DNA of 64,000 nucleotides from Candidatus Woesearchaeota archaeon CG10_big_fil_rev_8_21_14_0_10_37_12 (GCA_002762795.1 PCYA01000009.1:5059-69058), one strand, 5' to 3'; positions 18,226 through 51,091 are shown, numbered from the stretch's first letter. The notes: a model not told the origin generated them from the sequence alone. Numbers and translations are program-made.

Positions 18226-18295
18226 GACGTGATAGCTAAAACTGGCAGGCGTTTTGTCTTTATCTCAATCATAGCTTAATTCTCCAAAGGATGGT

Positions 18296-18940
18296 TTATA
18301 AATTTTGCTATTACACGGGCTTTGTAGAAAGTCTTAACTAAATATGACCCTCTTGCTCACGCAAGAGGGGGTTGGAGTGTACCCCACCATGAGTAAGAAA
18401 GAACGTTTGGATAGAAAAATTAAGCGGTTATTTATGCGCGCGGGACACCCGCGCTGGTTCCATCATATGGGACCTAAGAAGTTTGAAACATGGATTCTTT
18501 ACTTGGGTATTATTGTTAAGCAAGTATACCGTTTATCGTATCGTAGAGCTTCACGATTTCTCGACGATTATTTCTGCATTAAAATACATTTTACAACTTT
18601 GCAGAAGGCAGCAAGGAGGCTGCCAAAAATTGTGTGGCAGGCTCTTCTGGCAGCAACAATAACTACTGATTTTGTGAAGCTTGCTGCTGCGGATGGAACT
18701 GGCTTTTCAAGAACGAACCCGAGCAATTATTATTTGAAAAGAATCGATCGGGACAGTCCCATTGGACGTCCCGTACAAGCAATAACGCTTGTAGATGTGC
18801 AAAAAAGAAAATTTTTGTCAGCAAATTTCTACGCCAAACCATACCATGAAGCACAACGCATTCCTGGTCTGCACAAGAAAAGCCCAGTCAAACCAGAAAT
18901 TTTGCTCATGGAATACACATTCAAAAGCTTTTTATACTGA
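18296..18940 (+). mobile_element. Truncated IS element. The terminal inverted repeat is GCTTTGTAGAAAGTCTTAAC plus the N-terminal about 190 aa of a DDE-type transposase. The ORF ends prematurely (pseudogene)
   Basis: The transposase-like sequence has AADGTGF. The terminal sequence is shared with the MITE at 25326-25495. It sits at the edge of a GC-rich island. Confidence 0.5.
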
Positions 18941-18945
18941 ATGGT

Positions 18946-20637
18946 GTGCAGTTATATGTTATGAGATCACTTCCAGTTATATCAGAATTAAAACAACAAG
19001 TGTTTTCGGTGAAGAGGGAGGAGTTGGACGCTGTGATTGTGGGTCCGGATCAGGGTGAGGATCCATATCAGGAAGGGTCTCGGAAGAACTTTAGTGGGCC
19101 ACCTCTTGGGGCTTATACCGTAGCTCATTTTGCTGAAGCTCAGGGCTTTAAAACGACAGTATGGGATCCTAACTTGGATGGGAAAAAAGGACTATATGAG
19201 TTAATTAGGGATAAAAGGCCTCCTGTCTTGGGATTTTCGATTTTGCATGAAACTCTTGAGGATGATGTAAGGAATATCGTTGCGGCAAAAGAGGCATCGC
19301 CGGATTCGACTATCGTAATCGGCGGCTTTGAAGCAACCTTGAATTGGAGGCAATTATTTACTGAAGTCCCAATGATTGACGTGGCGGTGCTGGGGATGGG
19401 GGAAAAGACATTTTCCTACATCTTGAGCAGTGCTCAGCAAGGACGTAGCGTTGAGTCTATTCCTGGTATTGTCTATAGAAAAGGACTAAATGATCTCGTT
19501 GAGACATCGCGTGAGAAATACACAAGCAGTGATTTCGTCGATGCGCTTAATAATCTTGATTTTGGAAGAGTCCCTTATCCGCGTTATTGGAATGTGATTA
19601 CCTCACAGGGTAGGGCAAGCTTAAACACGATCAGGATTATGCTCACGGCAAATGATTGCAACTATAATTGTTCCTTTTGTACAGTGCCAGAGTTTTGGTC
19701 GGGATCAGATAAACAGCGGATCCAAAGAGGACCGATTCTTGAGGATGATGTTTCTATCGCTCAGATAGTTCGCGCGGTAAGATTACAGCCAGATACGCAG
19801 GCATTCTATATTGAGGACGATAACTTTGGCATGAATCCTAAGAGGATGGAAAGTGTGGCGCGAGGGATTATCCGTGCGAAAGAAATAGGATATCTCCCTA
19901 AAGATATCAAATTCTTCTGCCAACTCCGTGCCGAGTCGCTTCTGGAACAAACGCTTAAAGTCATGTGCGATGCGGGTTTTACTGTGTTATCATTAGGTAT
20001 AGAATCCTTTTCCCCAAATGTGCTTAATGAATTGACCAAAGCAGGCCCGAAGGCTGGGGAAAAGACTGCCAAGAAATGGGATGAGCGCTTGAACATGATT
20101 CTTGGCGTGCCTGGACTGACTCCATCTATGTTTATGATCCTCTTTACTCCTCAATCAACGGTAGATGATGTCAAATTGACGATGGATACTACTCTGTATT
20201 GGGTCAATCGCGGGGTGAATATGAATCTCAATGGCTATATGATATCATATCCTGGGGCCCCTATGGAAGCAAATAAATATGAGACCTTGACGTATCGTCG
20301 TATCAATGTTCCAAACACAACTATTGACTTTAAGGTTACTGATTTGGTGATGCCTATCAATAAAGACGTGAAAAATCTCGCGGAAGAGGCGTATAAACGG
20401 CAGGAAAGAGCAGTGATGGATTTGAGTGATGAATACAACTTGCCTCGTGATAAAATTCCTTTGGTTATCGAGCATCTAGTCCTTTTTAGAGAAGTATATT
20501 CGCTTATCACTGACAAAAAAGGCCAAAAAAATGCCACCAATATGATTAATGAGCGCCTCAGTGAATTAACAAAGTCTGCTGGAGCACCTGTTAATAGCTA
20601 TACGCTTTCAGGAAGTGTTTCAGAACAGTCATGCTAA
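18946..20637 (+). CDS. B12-binding-domain radical SAM enzyme
   Basis: CNYNCSFC (CxxxCxxC) follows an N-terminal Rossmann-like B12-binding region. GC is about 50%. Confidence 0.7.
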   Translation: MQLYVMRSLPVISELKQQVFSVKREELDAVIVGPDQGEDPYQEGSRKNFSGPPLGAYTVAHFAEAQGFKTTVWDPNLDGKKGLYELIRDKRPPVLGFSILHETLEDDVRNIVAAKEASPDSTIVIGGFEATLNWRQLFTEVPMIDVAVLGMGEKTFSYILSSAQQGRSVESIPGIVYRKGLNDLVETSREKYTSSDFVDALNNLDFGRVPYPRYWNVITSQGRASLNTIRIMLTANDCNYNCSFCTVPEFWSGSDKQRIQRGPILEDDVSIAQIVRAVRLQPDTQAFYIEDDNFGMNPKRMESVARGIIRAKEIGYLPKDIKFFCQLRAESLLEQTLKVMCDAGFTVLSLGIESFSPNVLNELTKAGPKAGEKTAKKWDERLNMILGVPGLTPSMFMILFTPQSTVDDVKLTMDTTLYWVNRGVNMNLNGYMISYPGAPMEANKYETLTYRRINVPNTTIDFKVTDLVMPINKDVKNLAEEAYKRQERAVMDLSDEYNLPRDKIPLVIEHLVLFREVYSLITDKKGQKNATNMINERLSELTKSAGAPVNSYTLSGSVSEQSC

Positions 20638-37581: not shown

Positions 37582-40500
37582 TCATCTTATGCTTTCAACT
37601 CTGATTTTAAACTTCAGAGTTTTATTACCAAGCGGATGTGCATTTGGATCAACTCCATACCCTTCTTTAGGAGGAACAGTTATCGTTTTAATTTCTCCCG
37701 GCATCATCCCTTCTATTCTTTTTTCAAACCCAGGAATTAACTGATCATTTCCTATAATAAAAGCAAGAGGTTTTGTTTCAAATGAATCAAAATCTGAATC
37801 AGAAGAAACATTCTTGCTCCGCCAATCAACAATACTGCTGTCAAACACACCATCATCAGTCCAACCAATGTAATTCAAAGCTACTTGAGCTCCAGATATT
37901 ACAGATGTTTTAGGCAACAACCCCTGAGGAACATATGCATCTTTCCCTTCCCAATCAACTTTCCAGACATAAACAGGGCCGCCAAATAACTGATTATCTC
38001 TAGCAAACAAATCAAAATGCTTTAAACCAAGACCATTCATATAAAATAATCGTGTAAACATGCTATCTGCAAGCGCATCATTTGCAGCAATAGCACTCAT
38101 TCCATTTTCAACAGGCCAAACAATAAATGTTAATTGATCATTACCTTCACTTGATGTAAACACCTGCTTTTCTCCCTTTTCATTATATATAATAACTTTT
38201 TTAGCAAGAGCTTTTCCAGAATCAACAGACAGTTCTCCTCTACCATTCGTAATATCAATCTGCAAACTACCACAAACCAACAAAGATCCTGAAACTTTAC
38301 AACCTTGAACATCATGTGTTACATATCCAGGATATCCACTTATCCAACCATTTGCAGAATCTTCAGACGTCAAAGCTTTTGCTTCTTTGTAAATCTCCTT
38401 CGATTTTTCTTCAGTCCAATTAAAACGATTCATCATTTTTGCAACAGCATCTTTTTCAGGTAAATGTCTCCACTCAAGCCAAACTTCAGCTTTTTTGAAA
38501 TCCCACATACCAAAATGAGACCAAACACCAGCCTTGCCAATCATATCAGGACTAACAATAAAATAATTTTCAGGAGGATCACAATGAGTAAACTGAAGTA
38601 TATCCTCAGACAGGCCTGCATCCCGGAGAGTATCTCTTGCAGAAGACTTATTCTGCATAATAATAGTCTTAATAATTTCAACTGTTTTAAAAGAATCATT
38701 TAATTTTTCAAAAATCATTCCTTGCGCAGTATTACTTCCGCAATCATTCAATCTTAAAATACCAATCGCTTCTCTCTCATCTTCTGTTTGCAACACTCGC
38801 CCAATCCAATGAGCCTGAGGAGATGTTTGTGAAGCACCATCAAAAGTAACCTGCCTATCAGCAATATACTTGAAATGATGACCAAAATCCCACCAAGAAG
38901 TTATGATTGCATCAGGAGCACTCTCTTCTTTTATTTTTGTCAACACAGCCCACCAAGCATCATTAACCATAGGGATACTTCCACGAACAGAACTATACGA
39001 TTGTGCAGCCATGTTGCTCCCACCAAGTGCAGGATTAATAATCATCAAACTAAAAATACCCAAAAGCACCACGCCAGTAATATATTTGTGAATATGCAAC
39101 TGTCTTTTTCCAAAATCTGACAAATACTTGTAACCAAATCCTGCAGCAGCACCAAACGCTATTGCCACAGCAGGACCAAGAAGCAAAGTAAACCGCGCAC
39201 CCTTCAAAGAAGCATACACTGAACCAACAAACCACAACGCCAAAATCAATGAATAAACAAACTCACGCTTATTTTTCTGATCTCGCTTAGAAAAACTCAA
39301 CAAAATGCCAAAGCATGCAACAACAAAAACCAACATGCCTCCAACAGAACTAATTATCATTGAAAAAGAAGCGGGATTTAATTCTGCAACAGTTGTTAGT
39401 ACGTTTGGCCAGATAGTTCCTCCTGCAGCAGATTTAATCGTTCTGAAATTGAGTGCATTATAAAAAATACCATTCCAAAATGCACGAACACCAATTGTAA
39501 ATAAAGACACTACAAACCCACTAACAAATATACACAAAGCAGCTATAAAATGTTTTTTTAAATGAGTCTCTTCCAAAAGAGAAACAAATCCATGCCTGAA
39601 CTTTTTCCTATTCAAAACAATTTCAATTATAATTACAAGACCAACAGCTCCAAAAATAATGTCTGCGAAAAAAAACCAGCCACTCCAAAAACTTGCGAAC
39701 AAACTAATAGCAACACCTGTTCCGCACGCAAACATAATTTGCTTTTTCCAAGACTCTGCAAAAAAAGTCTCAAACAATAAAAACAATATTAACGCTGGAA
39801 AAAACACAACATACATATCAGTATCAATATGCCCCCAAGGCGTACGAGTCATTATTGCAGGAATCAAACCAAGAACTATAACTGCAAAGAAACCGCTTAG
39901 CTTACCACCAAGCCTATATCCAGCAAAGAAAATAAAAATCAACGACAAAAAAATCAGAAAAATACCTATGTAAGCTGCCGAATCCATAAAAGGAACATTT
40001 TTGTTAACCAAAGAATTGACTTTGTAAAATCCTGCAATAACATAACTATGCCAGCTATTGTCAACACCCGTGCCAACAGGAGCAGACATATGATTATCCC
40101 AAGGAACACCATCATGAAGTTCATCATAATTGTGTCCAGTATTCAAAACATTTCGCGCAAGCCTCAAATAATGATAAGGATCAATATCAGGCATGTATGA
40201 ATATAACTTTCCATTTTCTTCATAAGAAAAATGATCACGCACCTGCTTTGCCAACCTCCCTTTTTCTACATCTAGAGTGGCTTTGTTTTCCTGCTGAAAT
40301 TTAAGCTTCAAATCATTAATCACTTTTTGCCTATTCGCTTCAGGCAAATTAGGATACCTTTGCTGTGCAATAGAAGCAACCTGCTGCTGGATAAAATTAT
40401 CTACATTTGAAGAAGCAACATTTTCTGCTATATCCAAATTTTTCGTTTGCATACGCATCCAAATACTGCCCCAAGGAGCATTGCCTTCACTAGGAACAAA

Positions 40501-40599
40501 CTGCAATGCTAATACGAGAAGTAACGTGAACAACACAGCGTGTTTTTGGACAAATGAAACTGTAGTCTTTGCTTTTGCCCAAATCGCATCCTTTTCCAT
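37582..40599 (-). CDS. aglB: Oligosaccharyltransferase AglB/STT3 homolog fused to a C-terminal FKBP-type peptidyl-prolyl cis-trans isomerase domain
   Basis: 13 or more TM helices and the WWDFGHHF (WWDYG) motif encoded at about 38883-38897. The last 110 aa are ALNYIGWTDDGVFDSS...PLAFIIGNDQLIPGFEKRIEGMMPGEIKTITVPPKEGYG, which is FKBP. Confidence 0.8.
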   Translation of the reverse strand: MEKDAIWAKAKTTVSFVQKHAVLFTLLLVLALQFVPSEGNAPWGSIWMRMQTKNLDIAENVASSNVDNFIQQQVASIAQQRYPNLPEANRQKVINDLKLKFQQENKATLDVEKGRLAKQVRDHFSYEENGKLYSYMPDIDPYHYLRLARNVLNTGHNYDELHDGVPWDNHMSAPVGTGVDNSWHSYVIAGFYKVNSLVNKNVPFMDSAAYIGIFLIFLSLIFIFFAGYRLGGKLSGFFAVIVLGLIPAIMTRTPWGHIDTDMYVVFFPALILFLLFETFFAESWKKQIMFACGTGVAISLFASFWSGWFFFADIIFGAVGLVIIIEIVLNRKKFRHGFVSLLEETHLKKHFIAALCIFVSGFVVSLFTIGVRAFWNGIFYNALNFRTIKSAAGGTIWPNVLTTVAELNPASFSMIISSVGGMLVFVVACFGILLSFSKRDQKNKREFVYSLILALWFVGSVYASLKGARFTLLLGPAVAIAFGAAAGFGYKYLSDFGKRQLHIHKYITGVVLLGIFSLMIINPALGGSNMAAQSYSSVRGSIPMVNDAWWAVLTKIKEESAPDAIITSWWDFGHHFKYIADRQVTFDGASQTSPQAHWIGRVLQTEDEREAIGILRLNDCGSNTAQGMIFEKLNDSFKTVEIIKTIIMQNKSSARDTLRDAGLSEDILQFTHCDPPENYFIVSPDMIGKAGVWSHFGMWDFKKAEVWLEWRHLPEKDAVAKMMNRFNWTEEKSKEIYKEAKALTSEDSANGWISGYPGYVTHDVQGCKVSGSLLVCGSLQIDITNGRGELSVDSGKALAKKVIIYNEKGEKQVFTSSEGNDQLTFIVWPVENGMSAIAANDALADSMFTRLFYMNGLGLKHFDLFARDNQLFGGPVYVWKVDWEGKDAYVPQGLLPKTSVISGAQVALNYIGWTDDGVFDSSIVDWRSKNVSSDSDFDSFETKPLAFIIGNDQLIPGFEKRIEGMMPGEIKTITVPPKEGYGVDPNAHPLGNKTLKFKIRVESIR

Positions 40600-40727
40600 T
40601 GTTTTTTCACAACTAAAATAACACCTTAAAAAACTTCCTATGGAGCTCGTCGTTACTTGCCAATAGTTACATTAACGAAAACTTTAAATAGTTGTTCTAT
40701 CGAACCGTTTATACAGGGGTAAGAAAT

Positions 40728-41912
40728 ATGAAGAAAATCCTTTTAACAACAGCAATTGCGGCAGCAGCACCAGTAGCAGCAGAAGCAAACAATGAACTAG
40801 ACACAAGAGCAGACGATATGAGTGGCGTCATCTACGCAGGAACGCAAGTTGAAAATGAAGCAGAAAGAGGCGTGCTTTCCTTGGACTTACGAGGCAACTT
40901 AGGAGAAAAAGGTGATTATCACCCAACACTTCGCGCACTTAGCGGAAGAGAAACAACAGAAATGGGAATTGATACTACTTTAGGAGCAGTACAACTAGGA
41001 TTAGGATTTGACTTCTTATTCTCACAAGGAACTCCTTTACTTCACTTAGAACCTTTTGTCGGCGCAGATTACTCGCGCACAGAAGGAGCATTCAATGAAG
41101 GACCAAACAAAGGAAATGAAATTGAATTAAGCCAATACGCAACAAACTACGGACTTAACCTTGGATTTAGAATTCCACAATTAGGAACAAGACTTGGCTT
41201 AACAGCATACGCAGGAAACGGAAGATATGATGTGGAAGAAAGAGTACGTGCAATGTTGCTCTCTGGAAGAGAACAAGACGGCAACTTTATTGTTGAAGGC
41301 ATTGTTCCTGCGTTTTTATCCGGAAATAAACAAGGAAACAGATCACAAATTGTTCTCGGCGGATCACTCACACAAATGATTCTTGGCACACCATCAAAAC
41401 CAATACGCACACGCGACGGTGATTTGATAGAACAGCAAGGAAATATTCTTTTTGCACGACCAGAAGATTGTGATTTCAACAGCAAAGACCCAACAAGACA
41501 ACTTCGTGCAACAGGAGCACGAACATTTGAACTTGACTTGTACGCAAACGGCCTTTACAGAGAATCAAGAAACGGCGGATTATTTGTTGATACGCTTCAA
41601 GGTGCACAAGCAGGACTTGTAGGAATATTCAACTTAAGAGATTATATTTTGGAAGACGGCAAAGTTGTACAAGAAGGAACAGCAATAGGATTAATGCCTT
41701 ACGCAAGATTCCAAAATTTAATGACGACTGTTCCTGGAGGAGCCAAGTTCCGTAAACAACTCATTGATGTTGGAGTACGAGGACTTGTTGAATACGCATT
41801 CGGCGGAAAACGAGGAATGACTTTAGGAGCCTATATCGATGGCGCGCACAGAAGCGACAGCGAGAAAAATGACGGTCCAATCGTAGAAGGGGGCATACAA
41901 TTATCATTTTAG
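40728..41912 (+). CDS. Secreted hypothetical protein with beta-rich, porin-like features
   Basis: Signal peptide MKKILLTTAIAAAAPVAAEA. The alternating-hydrophobic C-terminus ends in ...IQLSF. The ATG at 40728 follows a GGGG SD. The ORF table uses an upstream TTG. Confidence 0.4.
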   Translation: MKKILLTTAIAAAAPVAAEANNELDTRADDMSGVIYAGTQVENEAERGVLSLDLRGNLGEKGDYHPTLRALSGRETTEMGIDTTLGAVQLGLGFDFLFSQGTPLLHLEPFVGADYSRTEGAFNEGPNKGNEIELSQYATNYGLNLGFRIPQLGTRLGLTAYAGNGRYDVEERVRAMLLSGREQDGNFIVEGIVPAFLSGNKQGNRSQIVLGGSLTQMILGTPSKPIRTRDGDLIEQQGNILFARPEDCDFNSKDPTRQLRATGARTFELDLYANGLYRESRNGGLFVDTLQGAQAGLVGIFNLRDYILEDGKVVQEGTAIGLMPYARFQNLMTTVPGGAKFRKQLIDVGVRGLVEYAFGGKRGMTLGAYIDGAHRSDSEKNDGPIVEGGIQLSF

Positions 41913-41977
41913 TAAATCTTAAATATGAGTGCCACTCTCAAGTGGTCAACAACAAACGATAACGGGGGAAACAAACC

Positions 41978-42982
41978 ATGCAAGGGAAATATCTTACAAC
42001 AACAGCAATTGCATTAGCTGCACCACTAACAGGATGTGTTATTGGAGAAGAAGTAACTAGAGAAGGCGTACCAGAAGCTATTGCGCCAGTAAACGCAACA
42101 ACAAATGCACCAGAACAACAAAGAAACACCCTTGCAACAAACACTGATTATCGTGCACGATTACTTGCAGTTGGAAATAGACTGGACGAAATTGCCAGCG
42201 ACAAAATAGCAAACGGACAACCGAGAATATACACAAGCCCAAGACAAAGCGAAGACGAACTAAAACAACTTCTTGACACAAAAAAAGAACTTGAAGCAAT
42301 ACAAGAAGGCTTTGAAAATCAAAAAAATAACGACGATGCGTTAGGGGCATTAAGAACTGCTTACGCGACAAGACTTGAAGGATACTTAAGCACGCTTGCA
42401 AGTGACAAAGAACAAATCAAAGGACATTTGATTGTAGAATTAAACCCAGACCAAGCAGGAAGAGACATGGTTTACGGTACACGAGCAGGAAACAGACTAA
42501 CATTAGAAGGATCACTTGCAGATCATGTAGGATCATTTGGCGGAACAGAAGGAGTAGTATATGACCGAGACCAAGCACTTGAAAAACTTGCACGAGCAGA
42601 ATTTGGATACGCTGCACAACCAGGCGAAGCACTAGGCCCAGCAAGACTGCAAGAAATAGCAAGCCACGCAATGGAAGTCACACCAGACAATTGGGAAAAA
42701 GTTGCAGATTACATTCCAGCAATAGGAATCAGAGCAGGAAATGAAGTAATGACCAAAAGCAAACTTAAGAAATTAATTGATCATCAAAGAGTTCAATCAA
42801 TCGGCATTGTGTACACACATAACGTGCCAGAAGCTGTTCAACAGAATGATCAACAACTTCAAGGTCAACAAGACCAGAATGGCGATCAAGGCGCAGGAAA
42901 TAATGCCTCAGGTAACCAAGGCAACAATGGCGGCACTCCAGAAGATCCTGCAGCAGATGCAGCATTGGACAATATTGAGTAA
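41978..42982 (+). CDS. Putative lipoprotein (lipobox LTGC), secreted, with a Q/N/G-rich C-terminus
   Basis: MQGKYLTTTAIALAAPLTG|C. Confidence 0.45.
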   Translation: MQGKYLTTTAIALAAPLTGCVIGEEVTREGVPEAIAPVNATTNAPEQQRNTLATNTDYRARLLAVGNRLDEIASDKIANGQPRIYTSPRQSEDELKQLLDTKKELEAIQEGFENQKNNDDALGALRTAYATRLEGYLSTLASDKEQIKGHLIVELNPDQAGRDMVYGTRAGNRLTLEGSLADHVGSFGGTEGVVYDRDQALEKLARAEFGYAAQPGEALGPARLQEIASHAMEVTPDNWEKVADYIPAIGIRAGNEVMTKSKLKKLIDHQRVQSIGIVYTHNVPEAVQQNDQQLQGQQDQNGDQGAGNNASGNQGNNGGTPEDPAADAALDNIE

Positions 42983-43022
42983 TTTTTTTATTTTATCCAA
43001 GTAACATAAAAAGCTGATATAC

Positions 43023-45482
43023 ATGAACCAAAAAATACTCACAACATTAATCGTATTCTTACTAGCAATAACACCAGCAACAGCAGACATGTTCGGCGGA
43101 CAATTTGCAGGCGGACAAGGAATTGGCTCTGGACAAATCGCAGGCGGACAAGGCATAGGATCAGGACAGCTTGCAGGCGGACAAGGAATCGGAGCTGGAC
43201 AACTAGCAGGCGGATTTGGAATTGGCGGACAATTAGCAAGTGGACAAGGCATAGGATCAGGAATGACCGGACAAATGCCAAGCAGCAACTTTGTCACACA
43301 AAACAGCATACAAAACACAAACACATTCACCACACAAAACCTCAACAACAACTTGTTAAACAACTTTGAAACAAGAACAGACACACCACGCACAACAACA
43401 CAAACACTTCAACAAATAACCACAACTGGAACAACGCTGCCAAGAATAACAAGCTCACCAGTCACAACAGCGCGAGTAAACTTCAGATATCACTATCAAA
43501 TCATTGCAACACAACCAAACAACCAACCATTAGCATACTTAATTCTAAACGGACCAAACGGAATGAGCGTAACAAACACAGGACGAGTAAGCTGGACACC
43601 AAACCAAACAGGACAATATAACATACAAATAGGAGTAAAAACACAAGGAACAAACTTAGTAACACCACAATCATACACAATCACAGTCACAGAAAACCAA
43701 GCACCAGAAATCACAAGCCAACCAACACTAACAGCAATTGTTGGACAAGAATACGTTTACCAGATAACAGCAACAGATGCTGACGGAGACAGAACAGGAT
43801 CATTACCAGTGCAATCACCACAAGGAACAAACTTCAACATACAAACACAAACACTAACCTGGACACCAACAGCAAATCAAGTTGGACAACACACATTCAA
43901 AATATTAGTGGGAGACAGCTTTACAACAACAGAACAACAATTCACAGTAACAGTCAGATCAAGTTCATCTAATAACAACGGATCAAATGGTGGTGCAGAT
44001 GGTGGTTCAGACAACACAAACAGAGCACCAGTCATCACAAGTACACCAATAACAAACGCAGCAGCAGGAACAAGATACACATACGATGTTGAGGCAACTG
44101 ATGCAGACAATAACTTACTTACCTATGCACTCTTAAGCTACCCACAAAGCATGCGCATCAACTTCCAAACAGGAGTAATTACATGGATACCGACAACAGC
44201 ACAAGCAGGAAACAATAACGTTCGCGTTGTTGTAAGCGATGGCAGAACATCAACAACACAAGACTTCATAATCAACGTAGCAGCAAATGCCTTGCCACAA
44301 TTTGTGTCAAGCCCAATAAACAATGCGATTGTTAACCAACCATACACATACAATGTTGATGCAATTGATCCAAACAATGACAATATTGTGTACGCACTAC
44401 CAACAAAACCAACAGGAATGACAATCAATCCGCTTACAGGAATCATAACATGGATACCAACAAGTACAGGATTCTTCAACGTCACAGTAAGCGCAACAGA
44501 CGGAGGACAACCAGTACTACAACTATTCACAATTCATGTTCAATCACAAAACACAATCAACAACCATCCGCCAGTCATCACATCAACACCAATCAGAACA
44601 GCAACAGCAGGAACACAGTATTTGTATGTAGTACTTGCAGATGATGCAGACGGAGACACAAAAACATTTAACGTAAACGGACCTTCTGGAATGACAATCA
44701 ACAGCTTAGGAGTTATCAGCTGGACACCAAACAATACACAAACAGGAAATCATCCAGTAAGTGTTTCAGTAACAGACGGAACAGACACAGCATCACAAAC
44801 ATACACGCTAACAGTACAAACTCAAAGTCAAGGGTCTGCCAGTTGGCAAACAATTCCAACAGTAACAATCAATCAAGGAGCAACCTCAGGAACCATTATT
44901 TTAAGCAACGTTCTAGACAGATGCACAGATCCAGCAAACCCATTTGTAAATGTACAAATACTAAGCAACACAGCAGACTTACAATTCACAATTGACAGTA
45001 GAAATGATCTAAAACTCATATACATACATCCAAACGTTGTTGGAACACGACAAGTAAGATTGGCATGCAACGGTGTAGCAACAAGCTTTAACCTAAACAT
45101 ACAAGCAACAAACAACCAAAACAACAACGGAAACAATAATGGAAATACAGGAAGCAACAGTAATTCTGAAATCACAGTAAACTCAATCATCATACCAAAC
45201 GCGTATGATATAAGTCCAGGAAGCAGAATACCAATTACAGTAAGCGTAAGAAAAACAACAGGACCAAGAATAGAAGACGTACAAATAACAGCAACAATAC
45301 AAACACTTGGTGCACGAGCAACAAGCAGTGTTTTTGACATCGAAGGAAGCACATCTGTCAGGAGAACAGTATTCCTCCAAATTCCAGGAAGTGCTGATCC
45401 AGGCATATACACTGTGCGCATATCCATCGATGGAAGAAATGGCGTGCATGAGCAACTACACAGACAAATAACAATACGATAA
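43023..45482 (+). CDS. Large secreted surface protein or adhesin with a GGQGIGSGQ(I/L)A repeat tract and 5 or more cadherin-like/Ig-like (He_PIG/CADG-type) domains
   Basis: Signal peptide. Repeated (Y/L)TY(D/N)V(E/D)A(T/I)D(A/P)D(G/N) motifs. T/N/Q-rich. Confidence 0.55.
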   Translation: MNQKILTTLIVFLLAITPATADMFGGQFAGGQGIGSGQIAGGQGIGSGQLAGGQGIGAGQLAGGFGIGGQLASGQGIGSGMTGQMPSSNFVTQNSIQNTNTFTTQNLNNNLLNNFETRTDTPRTTTQTLQQITTTGTTLPRITSSPVTTARVNFRYHYQIIATQPNNQPLAYLILNGPNGMSVTNTGRVSWTPNQTGQYNIQIGVKTQGTNLVTPQSYTITVTENQAPEITSQPTLTAIVGQEYVYQITATDADGDRTGSLPVQSPQGTNFNIQTQTLTWTPTANQVGQHTFKILVGDSFTTTEQQFTVTVRSSSSNNNGSNGGADGGSDNTNRAPVITSTPITNAAAGTRYTYDVEATDADNNLLTYALLSYPQSMRINFQTGVITWIPTTAQAGNNNVRVVVSDGRTSTTQDFIINVAANALPQFVSSPINNAIVNQPYTYNVDAIDPNNDNIVYALPTKPTGMTINPLTGIITWIPTSTGFFNVTVSATDGGQPVLQLFTIHVQSQNTINNHPPVITSTPIRTATAGTQYLYVVLADDADGDTKTFNVNGPSGMTINSLGVISWTPNNTQTGNHPVSVSVTDGTDTASQTYTLTVQTQSQGSASWQTIPTVTINQGATSGTIILSNVLDRCTDPANPFVNVQILSNTADLQFTIDSRNDLKLIYIHPNVVGTRQVRLACNGVATSFNLNIQATNNQNNNGNNNGNTGSNSNSEITVNSIIIPNAYDISPGSRIPITVSVRKTTGPRIEDVQITATIQTLGARATSSVFDIEGSTSVRRTVFLQIPGSADPGIYTVRISIDGRNGVHEQLHRQITIR

Positions 45483-45568
45483 CTTTAAATAATAACGCTT
45501 ACTTCTAAGTGGTAATATTTGGCTATCACTTTTGGATGGTCAAAACACAAAGTCATGGGGGGAAATGA

Positions 45569-46786
45569 ATGAATTTGCGTAGCATAAGTATCAGTATAAT
45601 CTTCTTACTATGCATAGCAACAGTCACTGCACTCCCTATAAGTATAGACGAAGCAAAAATAGATGACATCCCTGTAAATGAAAACTCTGTTAACAGGCTT
45701 TCTTTAGAACGAGGAGAAGTTTACGAATTATTGCTCAGATTTACAGCATTTCAAGATGTAGATGATCTGCAAGTTCTCGCATTTGTCTCAGGCTTCGAAT
45801 TTGACGACATAGAACCAATAGCCGACAGAACACCTGTATTTGATGCAGACGCAGGCGTAACATACGTCAAAAGATTAGCAATACCAATATCACGAAACGC
45901 AGAAGAAGACGATTACAAAGTAAGAGTCATATTCTCAGACAGATCAGGAGACGAACTAACAGCAAACTACAACATCAAAATAGACGTACCAAGACACGCA
46001 CTACAAATTCTTGACGTTATTTTAAACCCATCAACAAGCGTACGTGCAGGAAGCTCACTATTAGCAAGAGTACGAGTTAAAAACCAAGGAGAAAGAGATG
46101 CAGAAGATGTTCGTGTAAGTGTGAACATACCAGGACTAGGAATTGGAGACACAACATACATCAATGAAATTGAAAGAAATGATGAACAAGCACAATCACA
46201 AGAATTATTCTTACGCATACCAAGATGCGCACAACCAGGATCATACGACGTTCTTATCACAGCAGAATACTTGCAAGGGTACAGAGCAGTACAAGACAGA
46301 AAAACAATCACAGTCACACAAGATGAAACATGCGAAGAATCAAATGAAGCACCAATAACAATAACACTGGGAAATAATGCACAACAAACACTCCCCGGAC
46401 AACCAGTAACATACCCAATCACCATAACAAACATAGGAAAAACCAGCAGAACTTTTGTTATCAACACACCTCCAACAGACTGGGCAGATGTCAGCGTAAG
46501 CCCAACAAATACACTTGTTGTGCAACCAAGACAAACACAAACAACATTCATAAGCGTTGAGCCAAATGAAGAATCAACATCAGGAAGCCACACAATCACA
46601 GCAGCAGTGACATCAAATAATTACCGAGAAGAACTAAACATAATCACAATGGTATTAGAACAACCAAGAAAAACAGGAATTTTTGAAACTGTTCTCATAA
46701 TCCTTGTTATTTTATTGGTTATAATTGGCATAATTATTGGCATAGCACACGCAAGAAGCAAAGAAAATAAACAGGAATACTATTAA
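45569..46786 (+). CDS. Secreted surface protein (CARDB/S-layer-domain-like) with a C-terminal TM anchor
   Basis: Signal peptide, then beta-rich domains, then ...IILVILLVIIGIIIGIAHARSK. Confidence 0.4.
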   Translation: MNLRSISISIIFLLCIATVTALPISIDEAKIDDIPVNENSVNRLSLERGEVYELLLRFTAFQDVDDLQVLAFVSGFEFDDIEPIADRTPVFDADAGVTYVKRLAIPISRNAEEDDYKVRVIFSDRSGDELTANYNIKIDVPRHALQILDVILNPSTSVRAGSSLLARVRVKNQGERDAEDVRVSVNIPGLGIGDTTYINEIERNDEQAQSQELFLRIPRCAQPGSYDVLITAEYLQGYRAVQDRKTITVTQDETCEESNEAPITITLGNNAQQTLPGQPVTYPITITNIGKTSRTFVINTPPTDWADVSVSPTNTLVVQPRQTQTTFISVEPNEESTSGSHTITAAVTSNNYREELNIITMVLEQPRKTGIFETVLIILVILLVIIGIIIGIAHARSKENKQEYY

Positions 46787-46787
46787 T

Positions 46788-49700
46788 ATGAAAAAAATAA
46801 TTGTATTATTGATTTTAATCGTTCTTTTACAAAGCGTAAGCGCTCAGGACTTTAACGCATACGGAGAACAATTCTTAGCAGGACAACCATGCACACAATT
46901 AACAAAACTAATAAGCATACAAAACACACAACAATACGCAGCAAACTACGCATTTAGTGTTGATGGAGATGGAAGCCAGTTTGTCAGCTTCTCACAATTA
47001 TCTTTAACACTAAACCCAGGACAAACTGGAACAATAACTGCATTTTACAACATTCCATGCGACGCAGAACTAGGAACATATGAGGTTGAGATCTATGTAA
47101 CAGACGGCATAACAGACAAACTAATACAACAACAACTTCTTATAGGATACTCAGATAATATACAAGTAAAAATATCTCCAGTCACACAAATAATAACACC
47201 ATGCAGTATTGCAACATACAACATAGAACTTACAAATCCATTAGGATTTACTGAAACATATACTTTGGAGGCAACAGGCCACGCAAACGTACACATAGGA
47301 CAGAAAACACTTTTAGTTCTTGCAAACCAAACAGCAACAACACAAATCACAGTAGCACCAGATGATTGCACTGCGTTCGGAGCACACGCACTAGAATTAA
47401 TTATTGAATCACAAAAAACAAAGCAAGCAAAGACACATTTGTTAGATCTGATTGTTACTCCAACACACATACCAGAACTAGCAACAGGCATAACAAAAAT
47501 CAGAACAGACTATGCTGATAGTACAGCAGAACTGACAATTCAAAATATTGGAGACAGAGAAACAGCCTACACGTTAGCTGTAGATGGAGTTTCTTGGGTC
47601 AGCCTTGCAACAAGAAGCATAACAGTAAGCCCAGGACAAACACAAATAATACCATTAAGCTTACAGCCAACAAAAGTCCTCCCGGCAGGAAAATATCCAC
47701 TAACATTCACAGCAACAGTAGATGAAACAGGAATACAATACAGCAAAGATATTGTTATTGCACTAGGACCACCAACATTCTTTGAACAAAACCCAGCAGC
47801 AGGAATAGTTTTGATCATCGTAGGAATAATTATTGTAATAATCATAGTCTTGCTTGCCATTCACGTAAGAAGCGATTCATACAAAACAAAAAAGAAGAAA
47901 CGAAATGAGGCAAGAGAAAAGAAACGCAAACTTAAACAACAGAAAAAAGAAGAAAAATTAAGGCTTAAAAAAGAAAAGAAAGAAGCAAAACTCAGAAAGA
48001 AAAGAGAACTTTACCTAAAAGCCCTTGAACGCAGACAGCGAGAGAAAAACAGGCTAGAAAAGAAAATACGCAAAAACGTAGAAAAAGAATACAAAACAAA
48101 CTATCATCTTATCTCGCGCAAAGAATTGATTGTGGGCGAATCACGAAAAATAGTACAAACACTATTTGCACTCTTTATATTTGTTATTGTAATACTGATA
48201 TTTATTGCAGCAAGAAAATTCTTATTACAAAATATTGTTGCAGTAGCAACAGGAATAGGAGTGCTTGTAATTCTGTACCTTGCAAAAAAACTAACAAGTT
48301 TCAGAGTTATAAAGAAAAAATGGAACTTATTACTTAAAGGAAAAACCGTAGAATTTACAGCATGGAAAAAAGGACTAACTGCATTATCAATAACTGCAGA
48401 ACAACCCATTAAAAGATTCAAAGCAATAATCAAAAAAGTCAAACCTGCAATCAAACCAAGCGTACGATACCAATCATTCTCATTCAGAACCAACATTCCT
48501 GCAGAAGCAACAGCAGTGTTCAAAATAAAAAAATCATGGCTGCGAAGAAAACACATACCCGAAACAGAAATTAAGCTTGCAAAACACAATACAGGAAACT
48601 GGACAAATATTGCACTAAGAAGAACAGAAGACGATGAAAAATACGTTCACTATCAAGCAACCATAAAATCAGGAGTGTATACTATTTATGGAACGCCAAA
48701 AATACCAAAGACAAAACCAGTAAAAGAAGAGAAAACCAAAAATACAGAAAACCAAAAAAAACCTGCAGAAGAGAAGCCAGTTAAAAAAGAAATCAAACAA
48801 AAAGCAGAGAAAAAAGTAAAGAGTAAAGAGTTAAAAGTAACAAAAATAGGAATTGGAAAAATAGTTGTATTTCTTGCGTTGATTGTGCTGCTCATTATTG
48901 TTCTAGGAATATCTATATCAGTAGGAAGTGCAACATACCTTGGAATAGGAATATTAACATTACTTGCAATTTACATAATAAAAAGAATAACTAAAGGAAA
49001 AATAAAACAAAAGAACTGGAAAATTTTCCCAGGAGAAGTTGAACTTTCAATATGGAATAAAGGATTAAGAAAACTTTACATCTCAGGAAAAGGAATACAA
49101 GACTTAAAAATTGTCGTTAAAAAAACAAAATCCATAATAACGCCATCATTAAACATATACCAAACATTCACATTTAACTTAAACAAACCGGCAAAAACAA
49201 TAGCAACAATTAGCGTTAAAAAAAGATGGCTTAGAAAAAATCATGCTGATTACAAAGACCTAAAACTTGCAAGATACACACCACATGGCTTTGTTAATTT
49301 GCCACTCAGAAAAGCAGGAGAAAACAAAAGAACAATACAATTCACAGTAGAAATAAAACAAGGAATGTACAGCATTTATGCACCAGCAAAGGTTAGCAGT
49401 AAGCAGTTAGCAGTAACCAGTAAACAGCCAGAAGTTAGAAGTAAGAAGCTGGAATTTAAAAGTAAAAAAGAGGTAAAGAGCAAAGGACTCGTAAAGAAAA
49501 AAGCAGTTAAGCCAAGAAACAAAATTAAATGGGCAATTGGGATCATTGTAGTATTGCTTGCGATTGCGATTTTTCTTGCACCAACACCACAACAAGAAAT
49601 AACAGGCATACCACCACAAACATGGACACAAAATACAATTCATGAATTAAACCTGGCAAATTATTTTGCAGACCCTGACGGAGATGAGCTAAATTATTCC

Positions 49701-49964
49701 GTAACACCAACTCAACATATCAATATTGAAGTACAGAACGGAATTGTACGTTTTATACCTGAAGAAAAATGGGCAGGAGAAGAACGCGTTCAATTTATTG
49801 CAACAGACAACCAAGGAAGCAAAACAACAAGCAACACAGTACCATTACAAGTTCAGCGAAGCATCATTGCACCTCACTTATACAAAACAATATCTGGTAT
49901 TGTTGTACTGCTTGTTATAATTCTAATTGTAATAATTGCATACTTTCATGCAAAAAAAAGCTAG
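46788..49964 (+). CDS. 1058-aa multipass surface/membrane protein. An N-terminal secreted domain is followed by a poly-Lys/Arg/Glu segment, then two copies of a diverged roughly 130-aa module separated by TM helices, then a C-terminal TM
   Basis: Signal peptide. 6 or more TM helices. Module 1 is about aa 505-640 and module 2 about aa 735-870 (WKKGL...K(K/R)(S/R)WLR(R/K)(K/N)H motif). Confidence 0.45.
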   Translation: MKKIIVLLILIVLLQSVSAQDFNAYGEQFLAGQPCTQLTKLISIQNTQQYAANYAFSVDGDGSQFVSFSQLSLTLNPGQTGTITAFYNIPCDAELGTYEVEIYVTDGITDKLIQQQLLIGYSDNIQVKISPVTQIITPCSIATYNIELTNPLGFTETYTLEATGHANVHIGQKTLLVLANQTATTQITVAPDDCTAFGAHALELIIESQKTKQAKTHLLDLIVTPTHIPELATGITKIRTDYADSTAELTIQNIGDRETAYTLAVDGVSWVSLATRSITVSPGQTQIIPLSLQPTKVLPAGKYPLTFTATVDETGIQYSKDIVIALGPPTFFEQNPAAGIVLIIVGIIIVIIIVLLAIHVRSDSYKTKKKKRNEAREKKRKLKQQKKEEKLRLKKEKKEAKLRKKRELYLKALERRQREKNRLEKKIRKNVEKEYKTNYHLISRKELIVGESRKIVQTLFALFIFVIVILIFIAARKFLLQNIVAVATGIGVLVILYLAKKLTSFRVIKKKWNLLLKGKTVEFTAWKKGLTALSITAEQPIKRFKAIIKKVKPAIKPSVRYQSFSFRTNIPAEATAVFKIKKSWLRRKHIPETEIKLAKHNTGNWTNIALRRTEDDEKYVHYQATIKSGVYTIYGTPKIPKTKPVKEEKTKNTENQKKPAEEKPVKKEIKQKAEKKVKSKELKVTKIGIGKIVVFLALIVLLIIVLGISISVGSATYLGIGILTLLAIYIIKRITKGKIKQKNWKIFPGEVELSIWNKGLRKLYISGKGIQDLKIVVKKTKSIITPSLNIYQTFTFNLNKPAKTIATISVKKRWLRKNHADYKDLKLARYTPHGFVNLPLRKAGENKRTIQFTVEIKQGMYSIYAPAKVSSKQLAVTSKQPEVRSKKLEFKSKKEVKSKGLVKKKAVKPRNKIKWAIGIIVVLLAIAIFLAPTPQQEITGIPPQTWTQNTIHELNLANYFADPDGDELNYSVTPTQHINIEVQNGIVRFIPEEKWAGEERVQFIATDNQGSKTTSNTVPLQVQRSIIAPHLYKTISGIVVLLVIILIVIIAYFHAKKS

Positions 49965-51091
49965 GAAATAAATCTCATTAACTCATATATCATTCCTGCA
50001 ACAAACATACTAATCAATATTGCATAACCCCAATGAGGGATGTTTATTACATATTCTGGCTTTCTATCTCCAAACTTCTTAGAATAACTGTGGATCAAAA
50101 TAATAATGATACCTACTAAACCTCCCGCAAAGGTTCCTGTAATATCCAATGTTTTAACAAATGACTCAACACCGAGCAGCAAAATAATTGCAGGAACAAG
50201 CATAGTTATCACCCACGCTTTTATATTTGTCATCTTAAAATCAGTCTTAAACACATCCTTTAAAGCATATGCAAGCGCAACAAAAGAACTAGCCATAGCC
50301 AAAATAGCAAAAACATGCAATAAAATAAACCCTGCACCGCCAACCAGCTGCGCAATACTAATCGTAGCAACTTCACTTGTCAACTCTCCAGAAACACCAA
50401 CAACAGCAATTGTAAACAACAAATAAACAATAACAGGAATAACAGAACCCCAGATAATTACTTTTTTTGTCAGTCTTGCACACCTTTTTAACTCTTGGCG
50501 AACTTCAGGAACAGCAGCAGTACCCAGACACGCAAACAACAAAACACCATACGGAATAAACACATTTGTCACATCAAAACCTGTAAACCTTGCAGAAGTA
50601 AAGTGATGCGAATTAAACAAAGCTGCTAAAATTAACACAAAAACAACAAGTTTTACAATTTCCATACACAACTCAGATTCTTCCAACACTTTTAAATTGC
50701 CAAATACAAGAATAGCCATCATGCCATAAAATATAACAGCCCACAACATGAACCAACCACCAAAAATACTCGTCAAACTCTGCGCAACACCTAACGTGTA
50801 CGCAACCAAACTCCCATACACACCAATCATCATCGCAACAAACATCAAATACTTCCCTTTTTTGCCAAGATATTGGTCAGCATATGTTACAAGCTGACCA
50901 CACTTCTTTGAACGCAACCCAATTTCACCTTCTAACAAATGAATAATTAACGCCACAATACCGATAACTAAAATTACAGCAATCCCTGTCCAAAAACCAG
51001 CCTTCATCACAACATAAGGAATAGCTAAAATACCTGCACCAATAATACAACCAGTCATTGTTGCCACTGACCCAAAAAATACTCTATTCAT
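49961..51091 (-). CDS. APC-superfamily amino-acid/polyamine transporter-like permease
   Basis: 376 aa, about 11 TM helices. Confidence 0.4.
   Translation of the reverse strand: MNRVFFGSVATMTGCIIGAGILAIPYVVMKAGFWTGIAVILVIGIVALIIHLLEGEIGLRSKKCGQLVTYADQYLGKKGKYLMFVAMMIGVYGSLVAYTLGVAQSLTSIFGGWFMLWAVIFYGMMAILVFGNLKVLEESELCMEIVKLVVFVLILAALFNSHHFTSARFTGFDVTNVFIPYGVLLFACLGTAAVPEVRQELKRCARLTKKVIIWGSVIPVIVYLLFTIAVVGVSGELTSEVATISIAQLVGGAGFILLHVFAILAMASSFVALAYALKDVFKTDFKMTNIKAWVITMLVPAIILLLGVESFVKTLDITGTFAGGLVGIIIILIHSYSKKFGDRKPEYVINIPHWGYAILISMFVAGMIYELMRFIS

Follow-up and report, generated by a model that had tools for sequence, protein, structure and literature searches.

What does a 1058-aa ORF with an ATG start (46788..49964, + strand) encode in the 64,000-nt stretch of Woesearchaeota DNA analyzed here (the window)? 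What is its repeated module, on which side of the membrane does that module lie, and what could such a protein do for the cell? A first-pass annotation had described a multipass surface protein with an internally duplicated module and a segment rich in Lys, Arg and Glu. The limits and length that it gave for the ORF are exact and every feature described there is present. Coordinates below are on the + strand unless stated otherwise.

The ORF and its protein family

The ORF product is 100% identical to a database entry, hypothetical protein COV18_02180 of Candidatus Woesearchaeota archaeon (CG10_big_fil_rev). The genome is from Woesearchaeota, in agreement with the DPANN origin guessed earlier. 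We found at least 24 full-length homologs (777 to 862 aa) with 25 to 43% sequence identity and the same order of TM segments and domains. They consist of a signal peptide, three Ig-like domains, TM1, a polybasic helix, a TM hairpin, one module, a TM, a cadherin-like domain and a last TM. Fifteen reference-genome loci were found with an 8-sequence family alignment; all are in Woesearchaeota/Nanoarchaeota-type MAGs and all are of single-module length. The search for the module in other genomes, proposed in the first-pass annotation, gave at least 24 homologs, and 15 loci, with one module each. Among the homologs and loci compared, the module is duplicated only in this genome.

The ORF is about 270 aa longer than every homolog, as could be the case if several genes were fused through missing stop codons or if a tandem repeat was mis-assembled. 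We regard such an artefact as extremely improbable. Both ends of the ORF align with full-length homologs, and the extra piece is an in-frame, diverged copy (30% identity) of a complete hairpin-module-linker unit. The database entry with the identical protein lies on a 784-kb contig. The two copies share no long near-identical DNA, and therefore the duplication is old and not an artefact of assembly. The chimera against which the annotation had cautioned is rejected, as the architecture is conserved in all homologs. Comparison with these homologs shows the ORF to be a real and conserved membrane-protein family member of Woesearchaeota/Nanoarchaeota.

The module copies are 36% identical over 120 aa (pairwise E 1e-26). 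The repeat had been described as a 130-aa module with about 30% identity; the similarity between the copies is significant, but the true unit is about 230 aa and comprises TM hairpin, module and Lys-rich linker (30% identity over 224 aa, E 5e-32). Residues 609-838 and 869-903 are inserted with respect to each of the 24 homologs, and linker 1 has no equivalent in the single-module homologs. It was concluded from the alignments that the tandem duplication of the hairpin-module-linker unit is lineage-specific and old.

Identity of the module

Module copy 1 (aa 500-637, 48285..48698, net charge +22) and copy 2 (aa 733-868, 48984..49391, net charge +23) are the two stretches of the protein that match PGF-pre-PGF (TIGR04213; score 61.9 bits, cutoff 28). 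The model is also matched by each of the 18 family modules tested (best E 5.5e-21). The AF2 fold (pLDDT 93.4, pTM 0.85) is a beta-sandwich that is both GAIN-B-like and ZU5-like, and the best Foldseek matches include GAIN domains. By profile match, the repeated module is the known archaeal surface-protein domain PGF-pre-PGF. Homology to a characterized family had been named as evidence that would count against the first-pass annotation. Such homology exists in part: the module family has a name (TIGR04213) and its fold relatives MAIN, GAIN and ZU5 are characterized. No Pfam model covers the module, either here or in the canonical relatives. A PDB sequence-profile search with the module alignment gave nothing at E <= 1, and Pfam ZU5 (PF00791) had no match at E <= 1 in the whole protein. 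A literature search for PGF-pre-PGF returned incidental mentions only.

Autoproteolysis into fragments that stay associated is a feature of MAIN (microbial GAIN-like) and GAIN domains. Their cleavage requires HX(S/T) in the last beta-turn (10.64898/2026.05.12.724683). In our alignment this catalytic motif is absent from the last beta-turn of both modules, which reads K-S-G in copy 1 (KSG-VYTIY) and K-Q-G in copy 2 (KQG-MYSIY); the canonical relatives have G-F-S ('pGFS.FAI'). Because Gly occupies the nucleophile position of the cleavage turn in both copies, self-cleavage of the window modules is not expected. Among the TM-flanked class the GFS/FAI turn is kept only by distant members. Some homologs have an H-G-T (KHGTYS), which was considered as a cleavage motif and rejected because it does not line up with the G-F-S of the canonical relatives. 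The MAIN 'HFS' cleavage turn occupies the same position as the canonical 'pGFS.FAI' turn of TIGR04213 when the two are aligned, and this may be a lead for the study of archaeal surface-protein shedding.

Ectodomains, TM segments and polybasic helix

A signal peptide was read from the sequence (aa 1-19, 46788..46844, MKKIIVLLILIVLLQSVSA/QD, cut after Ala19); Ala19 is nearly invariant in the family. Behind this signal-peptide-like N-terminus lies the N-terminal ectodomain (aa 20-335, 46845..47792, net charge -16), which corresponds to the secreted beta-rich domain described earlier. It is composed of three ASH/PapD-type Ig-like beta-sandwiches (aa 22-119, 126-223 and 229-326) with an AF2 pLDDT of about 90. 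Pfam FixG_C matches it with 54.9 bits and matches 25 out of 25 family members. The Foldseek matches of the ectodomain are HYDIN/CFAP-type Ig arrays, and the full-length protein retrieved generic Ig arrays only. The four Cys of the protein are all in this ectodomain, C139 and C194 being invariant and C35 and C91 nearly invariant. The C-terminal ectodomain (aa 933-1030, 49584..49877, net charge -7) is a cadherin-like/Big_9 beta-sandwich, with the beta domain at about residues 940-1025 and a motif YF.DPDGD.L that is invariant in the family. Big_9 (PF17963) scored 27.0 against a cutoff of 23.6; it is matched by 23 of the 25 members and Cadherin_5 (PF17892) by 19.

Seven hydrophobic TM segments (at about aa 338-359, 455-475, 482-499, 687-709, 714-732, 913-932 and 1033-1053) bear out the description of a multipass protein with ectodomains at both ends. 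TM1 (aa 338-359, 47799..47864) is predicted to run from outside to inside and is followed by a predicted cytoplasmic polybasic segment (aa 360-452, 47865..48143). AF2 modeled this segment as one helix continuous with TM1 (336-435). The TM1-TM2 loop has 93 aa with 40 K+R versus 15 D+E, and the K/R/E string quoted in the first-pass annotation is found at residues 366-425. A basic segment is present as claimed, but "K/R/E-only" over 90 aa is a loose description (70% K/R/E in the richest 60-aa window). A coiled coil or a balanced ER/K single alpha-helix was considered and is not supported, as K+R far exceeds D+E and the weak periodicity is 3.6 residues, not 3.5. No heptad signal was found in the segment.

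TM hairpin 1 (TM2 and TM3, aa 453-499, 48144..48284) has a very short outside loop, RKFLLQ. Its Asn482 is nearly invariant, with Pro-Asn there in most homologs. The cassette of TM, charged helix and two TMs scored 32.0 bits to DUF2207_C (PF20990), below the cutoff of 33 and in a region of biased composition; PF20990 matches in 11 of 25 family members at E <= 1e-3. Between the two modules lie the Lys-rich disordered linker 1 (aa 638-686, 48699..48845, net charge +11) and TM hairpin 2 (TM4 and TM5, aa 687-732, 48846..48983), which is homologous to hairpin 1. Copy 2 is followed by Lys-rich disordered linker 2 (aa 869-912, 49392..49523, net charge +13) and TM6 (aa 913-932, 49524..49583, predicted inside to outside). 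TM7, a short basic tail (HAKKS) and the stop codon complete the ORF (aa 1031-1058, 49878..49964). The stop overlaps the end of a convergent permease gene by 4 nt. In the full-length AF2 model, the polybasic helix, the linkers and hairpin 2 are predicted with low confidence.

Membrane topology

The topology call rests on hydropathy, TM parity and charge bias. In the 15 residues on each side of the TMs, the mean K+R count over 25 members is 2.0/5.3 for TM1, 4.4/0.5 for TM2, 0.4/5.3 for TM3 and 4.1/0.5 for the penultimate TM. The net charges of the window segments are, in order, -16, +25, +22, +11, +23, +13 and -7. Across the family they range from -35 to -10 (N-terminal ectodomain), +3 to +32 (coil), +12 to +71 (module plus linker) and -13 to 0 (C-terminal ectodomain). 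Each module is preceded by a hairpin of two TMs with an outside loop of just 4-6 residues. This hairpin and the positive-inside rule lead to the prediction that the coil, the two modules and the two linkers share one side of the membrane, the cytoplasmic one, with only the N- and C-terminal domains outside. The cytoplasmic placement of the basic coil in the first-pass annotation is supported; the alternating in/out topology proposed there is not borne out. The predicted cytoplasmic part comprises about 465 residues, whose charges add up to a net value near +94. Since the duplicated unit contains two TMs, the topology of the remaining protein would be unchanged by the duplication.

Relatives of the module were also compared. 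Among the top 150, 55 have a TM directly upstream and a median module charge of +15, whereas 93 are of the secreted type with a median charge of -2 (Mann-Whitney p = 1e-22). Divergent relatives with one extra hairpin keep the -/+/- charge pattern. The positive-inside rule holds less strictly for long loops than for short ones. The density of N-glycosylation sequons did not separate outside from inside regions (observed/expected 0.79 in the N-terminal ectodomain, 0.58 in the C-terminal ectodomain and 0.92 in the module).

There is a prior against a cytoplasmic module, because the characterized relatives (MAIN and GAIN) and canonical PGF-pre-PGF are all extracellular. MAIN/GAIN domains lie outside the cell between adhesion domains and the anchor (Brogan & Rudner, 10.64898/2026.05.12.724683). 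If each hairpin were a single TM or re-entrant, the window modules could also be extracellular, where they might attach to an anionic outer surface (glycans or lipids of the cell itself or of a host) and possibly form a shedding device. The canonical relatives are all secreted, with the order adhesion domains, module and C-terminal anchor, and in the single-module homologs a TM comes closely after the module in a similar layout. We nevertheless consider extracellular modules rather unlikely. With such an arrangement, the cadherin-like DPDGD domain would end up in the cytoplasm and the basic tail on the outer side. On their module side, the TM flanks have 4-5 K/R versus 0.4-0.5 on the opposite side, AF2 predicted helix-break-helix for both hairpins, and relatives gain or lose hairpins only in two-TM units. 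In addition, the turn has Gly in place of the nucleophile Ser.

Gene neighborhood

The partner gene g4 (405 aa, 45569..46786) ends 1 nt before the ATG of the ORF. It encodes a signal peptide, CARDB/NPCBM_assoc Ig-like domains, a C-terminal TM and a basic tail, and is found directly upstream of the family gene in 21 out of 21 loci. Its match to the NCBIfam "putative S-layer protein" model NF033506 is partial (score 65, below the cutoff of 110). Paralogy between g4 and the N-terminal ectodomain was considered and rejected; the similarity is weak and at the level of domain type. Three more cluster genes are located upstream (40692..45482) with intergenic gaps of 40-86 nt: g1 (406 aa), g2 (334 aa, with a lipobox-like LTGC) and g3 (819 aa, with five He_PIG domains). 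The products of the envelope cluster, g1 to g3 included, have signal-peptide-like N-termini and are all acidic. An AglB/STT3 oligosaccharyltransferase fused to a C-terminal FKBP domain is divergently transcribed (37582..40599, - strand) and stands at the head of a glycosyltransferase cluster. It keeps its place relative to the family, with AglB upstream of the family gene at every locus with enough flank. The strictly conserved pair of g4 and the family gene beside AglB is a strong candidate for the core envelope architecture of Woesearchaeota.

Possible function

We infer, at about even confidence, that the ORF family is an envelope-to-membrane connector with cytoplasmic modules that is made together with the g4 product. 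The connector would be made jointly with this TM-anchored CARDB/NPCBM_assoc surface protein, encoded 1 nt upstream, and its conserved ectodomains would engage components of the cell's own surface layer. The basic sandwich would be held against the inner leaflet by the TMs, because short tethers join TMs at both module ends in the single-module homologs. The modules and the polybasic helix may bind the anionic head groups of lipids, or a cytoplasmic partner that is acidic. Lipid, nucleic acid and protein rank alike as candidate ligands of the basic modules. By analogy, the module layout suggests a closer resemblance to the cytoplasmic ZU5 domains of UNC5 and ankyrin than to extracellular MAIN/GAIN.

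The same predicted topology is compatible with a host-attachment or cell-cell contact adhesin of an episymbiont, as had been proposed in the first-pass annotation. The Ig-like and cadherin-like ectodomains would then bind the host and the cytoplasmic part would only anchor or signal. Host-recognition proteins usually diverge fast. The ectodomain folds are indeed of the adhesion type (ASH/PapD Ig; cadherin-like with DPDGD) and the organism is a DPANN archaeon, a group in which surface proteins are thought to mediate symbiosis (10.1101/2023.10.27.564410). In this family, however, the ectodomains are the most conserved regions, with mean pairwise identities of 56% (C-terminal, the highest) and 49% (N-terminal) versus 29-34% for the TMs. 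The synteny with AglB and g4 is strict down to 25% identity, presumably across different hosts, which suggests a housekeeping role in the envelope. An adhesin of this kind is a minority possibility in our estimate; conserved ectodomains and strict AglB-linked synteny are more in keeping with a core role in the envelope than with a host adhesin that evolves fast.

The extreme positive charge of the cytoplasmic segments throughout the family, and a long basic helix that is no classic coiled coil, would also suit a tether of nucleic acid to the membrane. The polybasic region (helix, two modules and linkers) could serve as a chromosome anchor or hold imported DNA or RNA beneath a contact site. Domain and fold searches found no nucleic-acid-binding family or fold, and DNA-handling genes are absent from the conserved cluster. 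The short tethering of the module to TMs at both ends in the single-module homologs favors contact with the membrane surface. This role is judged improbable, more so than that of an adhesin.

Comparison with known systems

In secreted proteins, PGF-pre-PGF typically lies toward the C-terminus and directly precedes a single C-terminal anchor, which is typically PGF-CTERM. The canonical relatives show this expected C-terminal layout: signal peptide, adhesion domains, module and one C-terminal anchor (PGF-CTERM in some), with neutral or acidic modules. The window protein resembles them in being archaeal and in scoring above the curated cutoff of TIGR04213, and distant family members keep the terminal 'GF..FAI.G' strand. 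In contrast, it has a TM hairpin before the module and a TM, a 98-aa ectodomain and another TM after it, and PGF-CTERM has no match in the window protein. Its modules are polybasic, predicted cytoplasmic and devoid of the turn Ser. MAIN proteins have the order signal peptide, adhesion or enzyme domains, MAIN and anchor (10.64898/2026.05.12.724683). Compared with MAIN and with eukaryotic GAIN subdomain B, the window modules carry KSG/KQG at the turn, lie between TMs and are predicted to be cytoplasmic.

The likeness to cytoplasmic ZU5 domains (UNC5 netrin receptors, ankyrins, and the FIIND of PIDD/NLRP1/CARD8) is one of fold and layout only; the window module has no UPA or death domain, and both its ends are attached to the membrane. 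The cassette of TM, charged helix and two TMs resembles DUF2207 (PF20990 C-terminal domain) below the cutoff, and the DUF2207 N-terminal domain is absent here; DUF2207 itself is uncharacterized to our knowledge. A SlaB-like anchor is the membrane-anchored partner of a lattice-forming S-layer protein. A role like that of this archaeal S-layer anchor is a possibility raised by the gene context, namely by the coupling to g4 and by the sub-threshold NF033506 match of g4.

What appears to be new here is a known PGF-pre-PGF module in a TM-flanked, polybasic and predicted cytoplasmic form without the cleavage motif. A bolder and rather doubtful reading is that a GAIN/ZU5-type sandwich, which in other settings is a self-cleaving module for shedding outside the cell, was moved to the cytoplasmic face of an adhesion-type receptor with two ectodomains. 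There it would link an intracellular anionic target to the surface layer or to a contact partner in a manner like UNC5 or ankyrin, with the order Ig ectodomain, TM and cytoplasmic ZU5. If true, cytoplasmic ZU5 modules would have a precedent in prokaryotes, and the family would be a case of domain-topology inversion via TM hairpin insertion. If the predicted topology holds, the family departs from the recently proposed rule that MAIN and PGF-pre-PGF are extracellular and anchor-adjacent. It would also illustrate a simple route by which a domain is moved across the membrane through the addition of two-TM hairpins, with the duplication in the window as a second use of that route.

Gene integrity and internal duplication

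An intact ORF at 46788..49964 (+) codes for a 1058-aa protein in which hydropathy shows seven TM segments after an N-terminus resembling a signal peptide, in agreement with the multipass protein described in the first-pass annotation. It is 100% identical to hypothetical protein COV18_02180 of Candidatus Woesearchaeota archaeon, located on a 784-kb contig. The terminal domains are acidic (net charges -16 and -7) and the internal segments strongly basic (+25, +22, +11, +23 and +13). We found 24 homologs of 777-862 aa with 25-43% identity to the window protein and an identical domain order: signal peptide, ectodomain (~310 aa), TM1, K/R/E-rich segment (~85 aa), two closely spaced TMs, one module, TM, domain of ~95 aa, and TM. 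The ORF is a genuine gene and belongs to a conserved family. When one genome per species was scanned, 15 family loci emerged, all of single-module length and from Woesearchaeota/Nanoarchaeota-type MAGs, some labelled 'Methanosarcinales'. The MAG records of L008, L009, L012-L014, L016 and L019 are titled 'uncultured Methanosarcinales archaeon'; since their gene content and synteny fit Woesearchaeota loci, these labels look wrong.

The two module copies (aa 500-637 and 733-868) share 36% identity over 120 aa (pairwise alignment, E 1e-26). They had been reported as a duplicated 130-aa module. The duplication holds, but with flanks included the homology takes in the TM hairpin ahead of each module and the Lys-rich linker behind it (30% identity over 224 aa, E 5e-32), so the duplicated unit is ~230 aa. 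No long near-identical DNA is common to the two copies; the duplication is therefore old and no assembly artefact. A chimera of several genes, raised earlier as a possible objection, was rejected because the 24 homologs share one architecture. The internal duplication is lineage-specific. Residues 609-838 and 869-903 form an insertion relative to every homolog in the family alignment, and the window protein alone carries two modules among the TM-flanked proteins in the best 150 matches of an exhaustive profile search.

Module identity and fold

The module is an NCBIfam PGF-pre-PGF domain (TIGR04213; 61.9 bits, cutoff 28) with a ZU5/GAIN-B-like fold. TIGR04213 is matched by 18 of 18 family modules; no Pfam model covers it. 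The window protein is a variant of a known domain family and no new kind of system. The fold resembles ZU5 domains and ZU5-containing chains (UNC5B, score 8.3; ankyrin, 8.2), GAIN subdomain B (CD97, 8.2 and 8.1; BAI3, 8.0; CELSR1, 7.7) and FIIND (CARD8, 8.1; NLRP1, 7.0) in alignments of 106-122 residues; generic sandwiches score <=6.9 over <=91 residues. The top Foldseek matches, which are weak, are GAIN domains too.

Microbial GAIN-like 'MAIN' domains are extracellular and are cut at HX(S/T) in the last beta-turn, in proteins ordered as signal peptide, adhesion/enzyme domains, MAIN and anchor (10.64898/2026.05.12.724683). In the structure-based tables of that preprint, which include archaeal surface proteins, MAIN domains are labelled ECOD 'ZU5'; PGF-pre-PGF goes unmentioned (10.64898/2026.05.12.724683). 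The cleavage turn was compared by placing 184 module instances on the family HMM. In canonical secreted relatives (P0031-P0173), the last beta-turn and strand read 'pGFS.FAI.GE' with very high conservation. MAIN/GAIN domains are cleaved at H-X-(S/T), e.g., HF|S in YfkN, and canonical TIGR04213 has the same position with Gly for His. The shared turn position, fold and adhesion-module-anchor order suggest that TIGR04213 represents the archaeal MAIN branch. At the G-F-S positions the window modules read K-S-G and K-Q-G, and most of the core family 'PG-T' or 'GFG'. The cleavage-turn nucleophile is absent from the window modules, its position being Gly, and self-cleavage of the MAIN/GAIN type is therefore not expected.

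Gene neighbourhood

The minus strand carries a glycosyltransferase cluster and an AglB/STT3 oligosaccharyltransferase (37582-40599, -) to whose C-terminus a peptidyl-prolyl isomerase domain of the FKBP type is fused (FKBP_C, residues 901-1000); related Woesearchaeota loci keep the fusion (L001, 709-3702; L003, 102-3149). Five plus-strand genes come next, g1-g4 and the ORF, all with signal-peptide-like N-termini; the g1-g4 products have acidic net charges. The listed TTG start of g1 (40692-41912, +) is probably too far upstream, and an internal MKKILLTTAIAAAAPVAAEA 12 residues in resembles the true signal peptide/start. g2 (41978-42982, +; 334 aa) has no family match, a signal like that of lipoproteins with a lipobox-like LTGC at its end, and an acidic, Gln/Asn/Gly-rich C-terminus. 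g3 (43023-45482, +; 819 aa) opens with a tandem repeat rich in Gly and Gln, GGQGIGSGQ(I/L)A..., after which come five He_PIG domains. At related loci its slot holds a gene of only ~350 aa with the C-terminal ~220 aa alone in common, so this slot varies among lineages. g4 (+), whose product combines CARDB/NPCBM_assoc domains with a C-terminal TM, lies directly upstream of the ORF with 1 nt between its stop codon and the ORF ATG. With 65 bits it falls short of the cutoff (110) of NF033506, the NCBIfam model for a 'putative S-layer protein'. As context, candidate S-layer and anchor proteins of the cultivated DPANN Nanobdella are Ig-rich with TM anchors (10.1101/2023.10.27.564410). A convergent amino-acid permease (49961-51091, -) lies directly downstream; the ORF stop codon overlaps its 3' end by 4 nt (49961-49964), and a tail-to-tail overlap of 12-18 nt is also found in L001, L003 and L005.

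Synteny of the ORF with g4 and AglB is strict: by tblastn, g4 is immediately upstream of the family gene in 21 of 21 related loci and AglB is upstream wherever the flank is long enough. The permease is downstream in 19 of 21. The envelope-gene block (42001-50000) has a G+C of 0.37-0.42, compared with ~0.30-0.35 elsewhere, and its coding strand is very strongly skewed towards A over T (AT skew 0.32-0.42). A second G+C bump (0.42) lies at 18001-20000, where Rfam found no rRNA.

Predicted membrane topology and the polybasic helix

Each module is preceded by two TMs only 4-6 residues apart, and both hairpins are helix-break-helix in the AF2 model. Mean K+R in the 15 residues either side of each TM (25 family members) was 2.0 and 5.3 for TM1, 4.4 and 0.5 for TM2, 0.4 and 5.3 for TM3, and 4.1 and 0.5 for the penultimate TM. 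Together with a cleaved signal peptide, these charges give one self-consistent topology, in which both ectodomains are predicted outside and the helix, module(s) and linkers inside (cytoplasmic). The 'alternating in/out' arrangement proposed earlier is not supported, since helix, modules and linkers are all predicted on one side. In every family member the net charge is -35 to -10 for the N-terminal ectodomain, +3 to +32 for the helix, +12 to +71 for module plus linker, and -13 to 0 for the C-terminal ectodomain. Extracellular modules are a rival reading; against it stand TM parity, the charges flanking the TMs and the side on which the cadherin-like domain would lie. Sequon density gave no independent support for the predicted topology.

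The module profile retrieved 6001 cluster representatives at E <= 1e-3. In the best 150, the module directly follows a TM in 55 (51 of them with two TMs downstream), where its median charge is +15; 93 are of the secreted type, lacking the upstream TM, with a median of -2 (Mann-Whitney p = 1e-22). More divergent TM-flanked relatives have one additional hairpin and keep the acidic/basic/acidic pattern, so hairpins are gained as two-TM units and the module stays on the basic side. The window duplication (hairpin, module and linker) is a topology-neutral change of the same kind.

The segment first described as K/R/E-only does lie in the TM1-TM2 loop (93 aa), but its richest 60-aa window is 70% K/R/E. 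In the AF2 model, at low to moderate confidence, one unbroken helix runs from TM1 as far as residue 435. Family members sampled have 37-47% K+R vs 12-21% D+E; their hydrophobic periodicity is weak, at 3.6 residues, a heptad signal is absent, and the segment is therefore a polybasic, weakly amphipathic helix. Composition and periodicity do not support a classic coiled coil or balanced ER/K helix. The 'TM, charged helix, two TMs' arrangement is borderline against DUF2207_C (32.0 vs 33 bits; 11 of 25 members match).

Ectodomains and proposed role

The N-terminal ectodomain consists of three ASH/PapD-type Ig-like sandwiches (AF2 pLDDT ~90), matches FixG_C in 25 of 25 family members and resembles HYDIN/CFAP-type Ig arrays by Foldseek. 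All four Cys of the window protein lie within it at family-conserved positions. At the C-terminus, the ectodomain is a Big_9/cadherin-like sandwich in which a YF.DPDGD.L motif is invariant. Conservation within the family is highest in the ectodomains (mean pairwise identity 56% for the C-terminal ectodomain and 49% for Ig3, vs 29-34% for the TMs). This pattern speaks against a host adhesin; the host-attachment idea of the first-pass annotation is kept as a rival. Its observation is confirmed with refinements and its interpretation partly supported.

We infer a role for the window protein as a connector between envelope and membrane, produced together with g4. The conserved ectodomains would bind the cell's own surface layer, and the polybasic helix and membrane-apposed sandwiches may bind either anionic lipids or an acidic partner in the cytoplasm. 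A nucleic-acid tether is a further rival, for which charge is the sole support. In its predicted layout, the window protein is nearer to cytoplasmic ZU5 devices of the UNC5/ankyrin type than to the shedding modules of MAIN/GAIN proteins.
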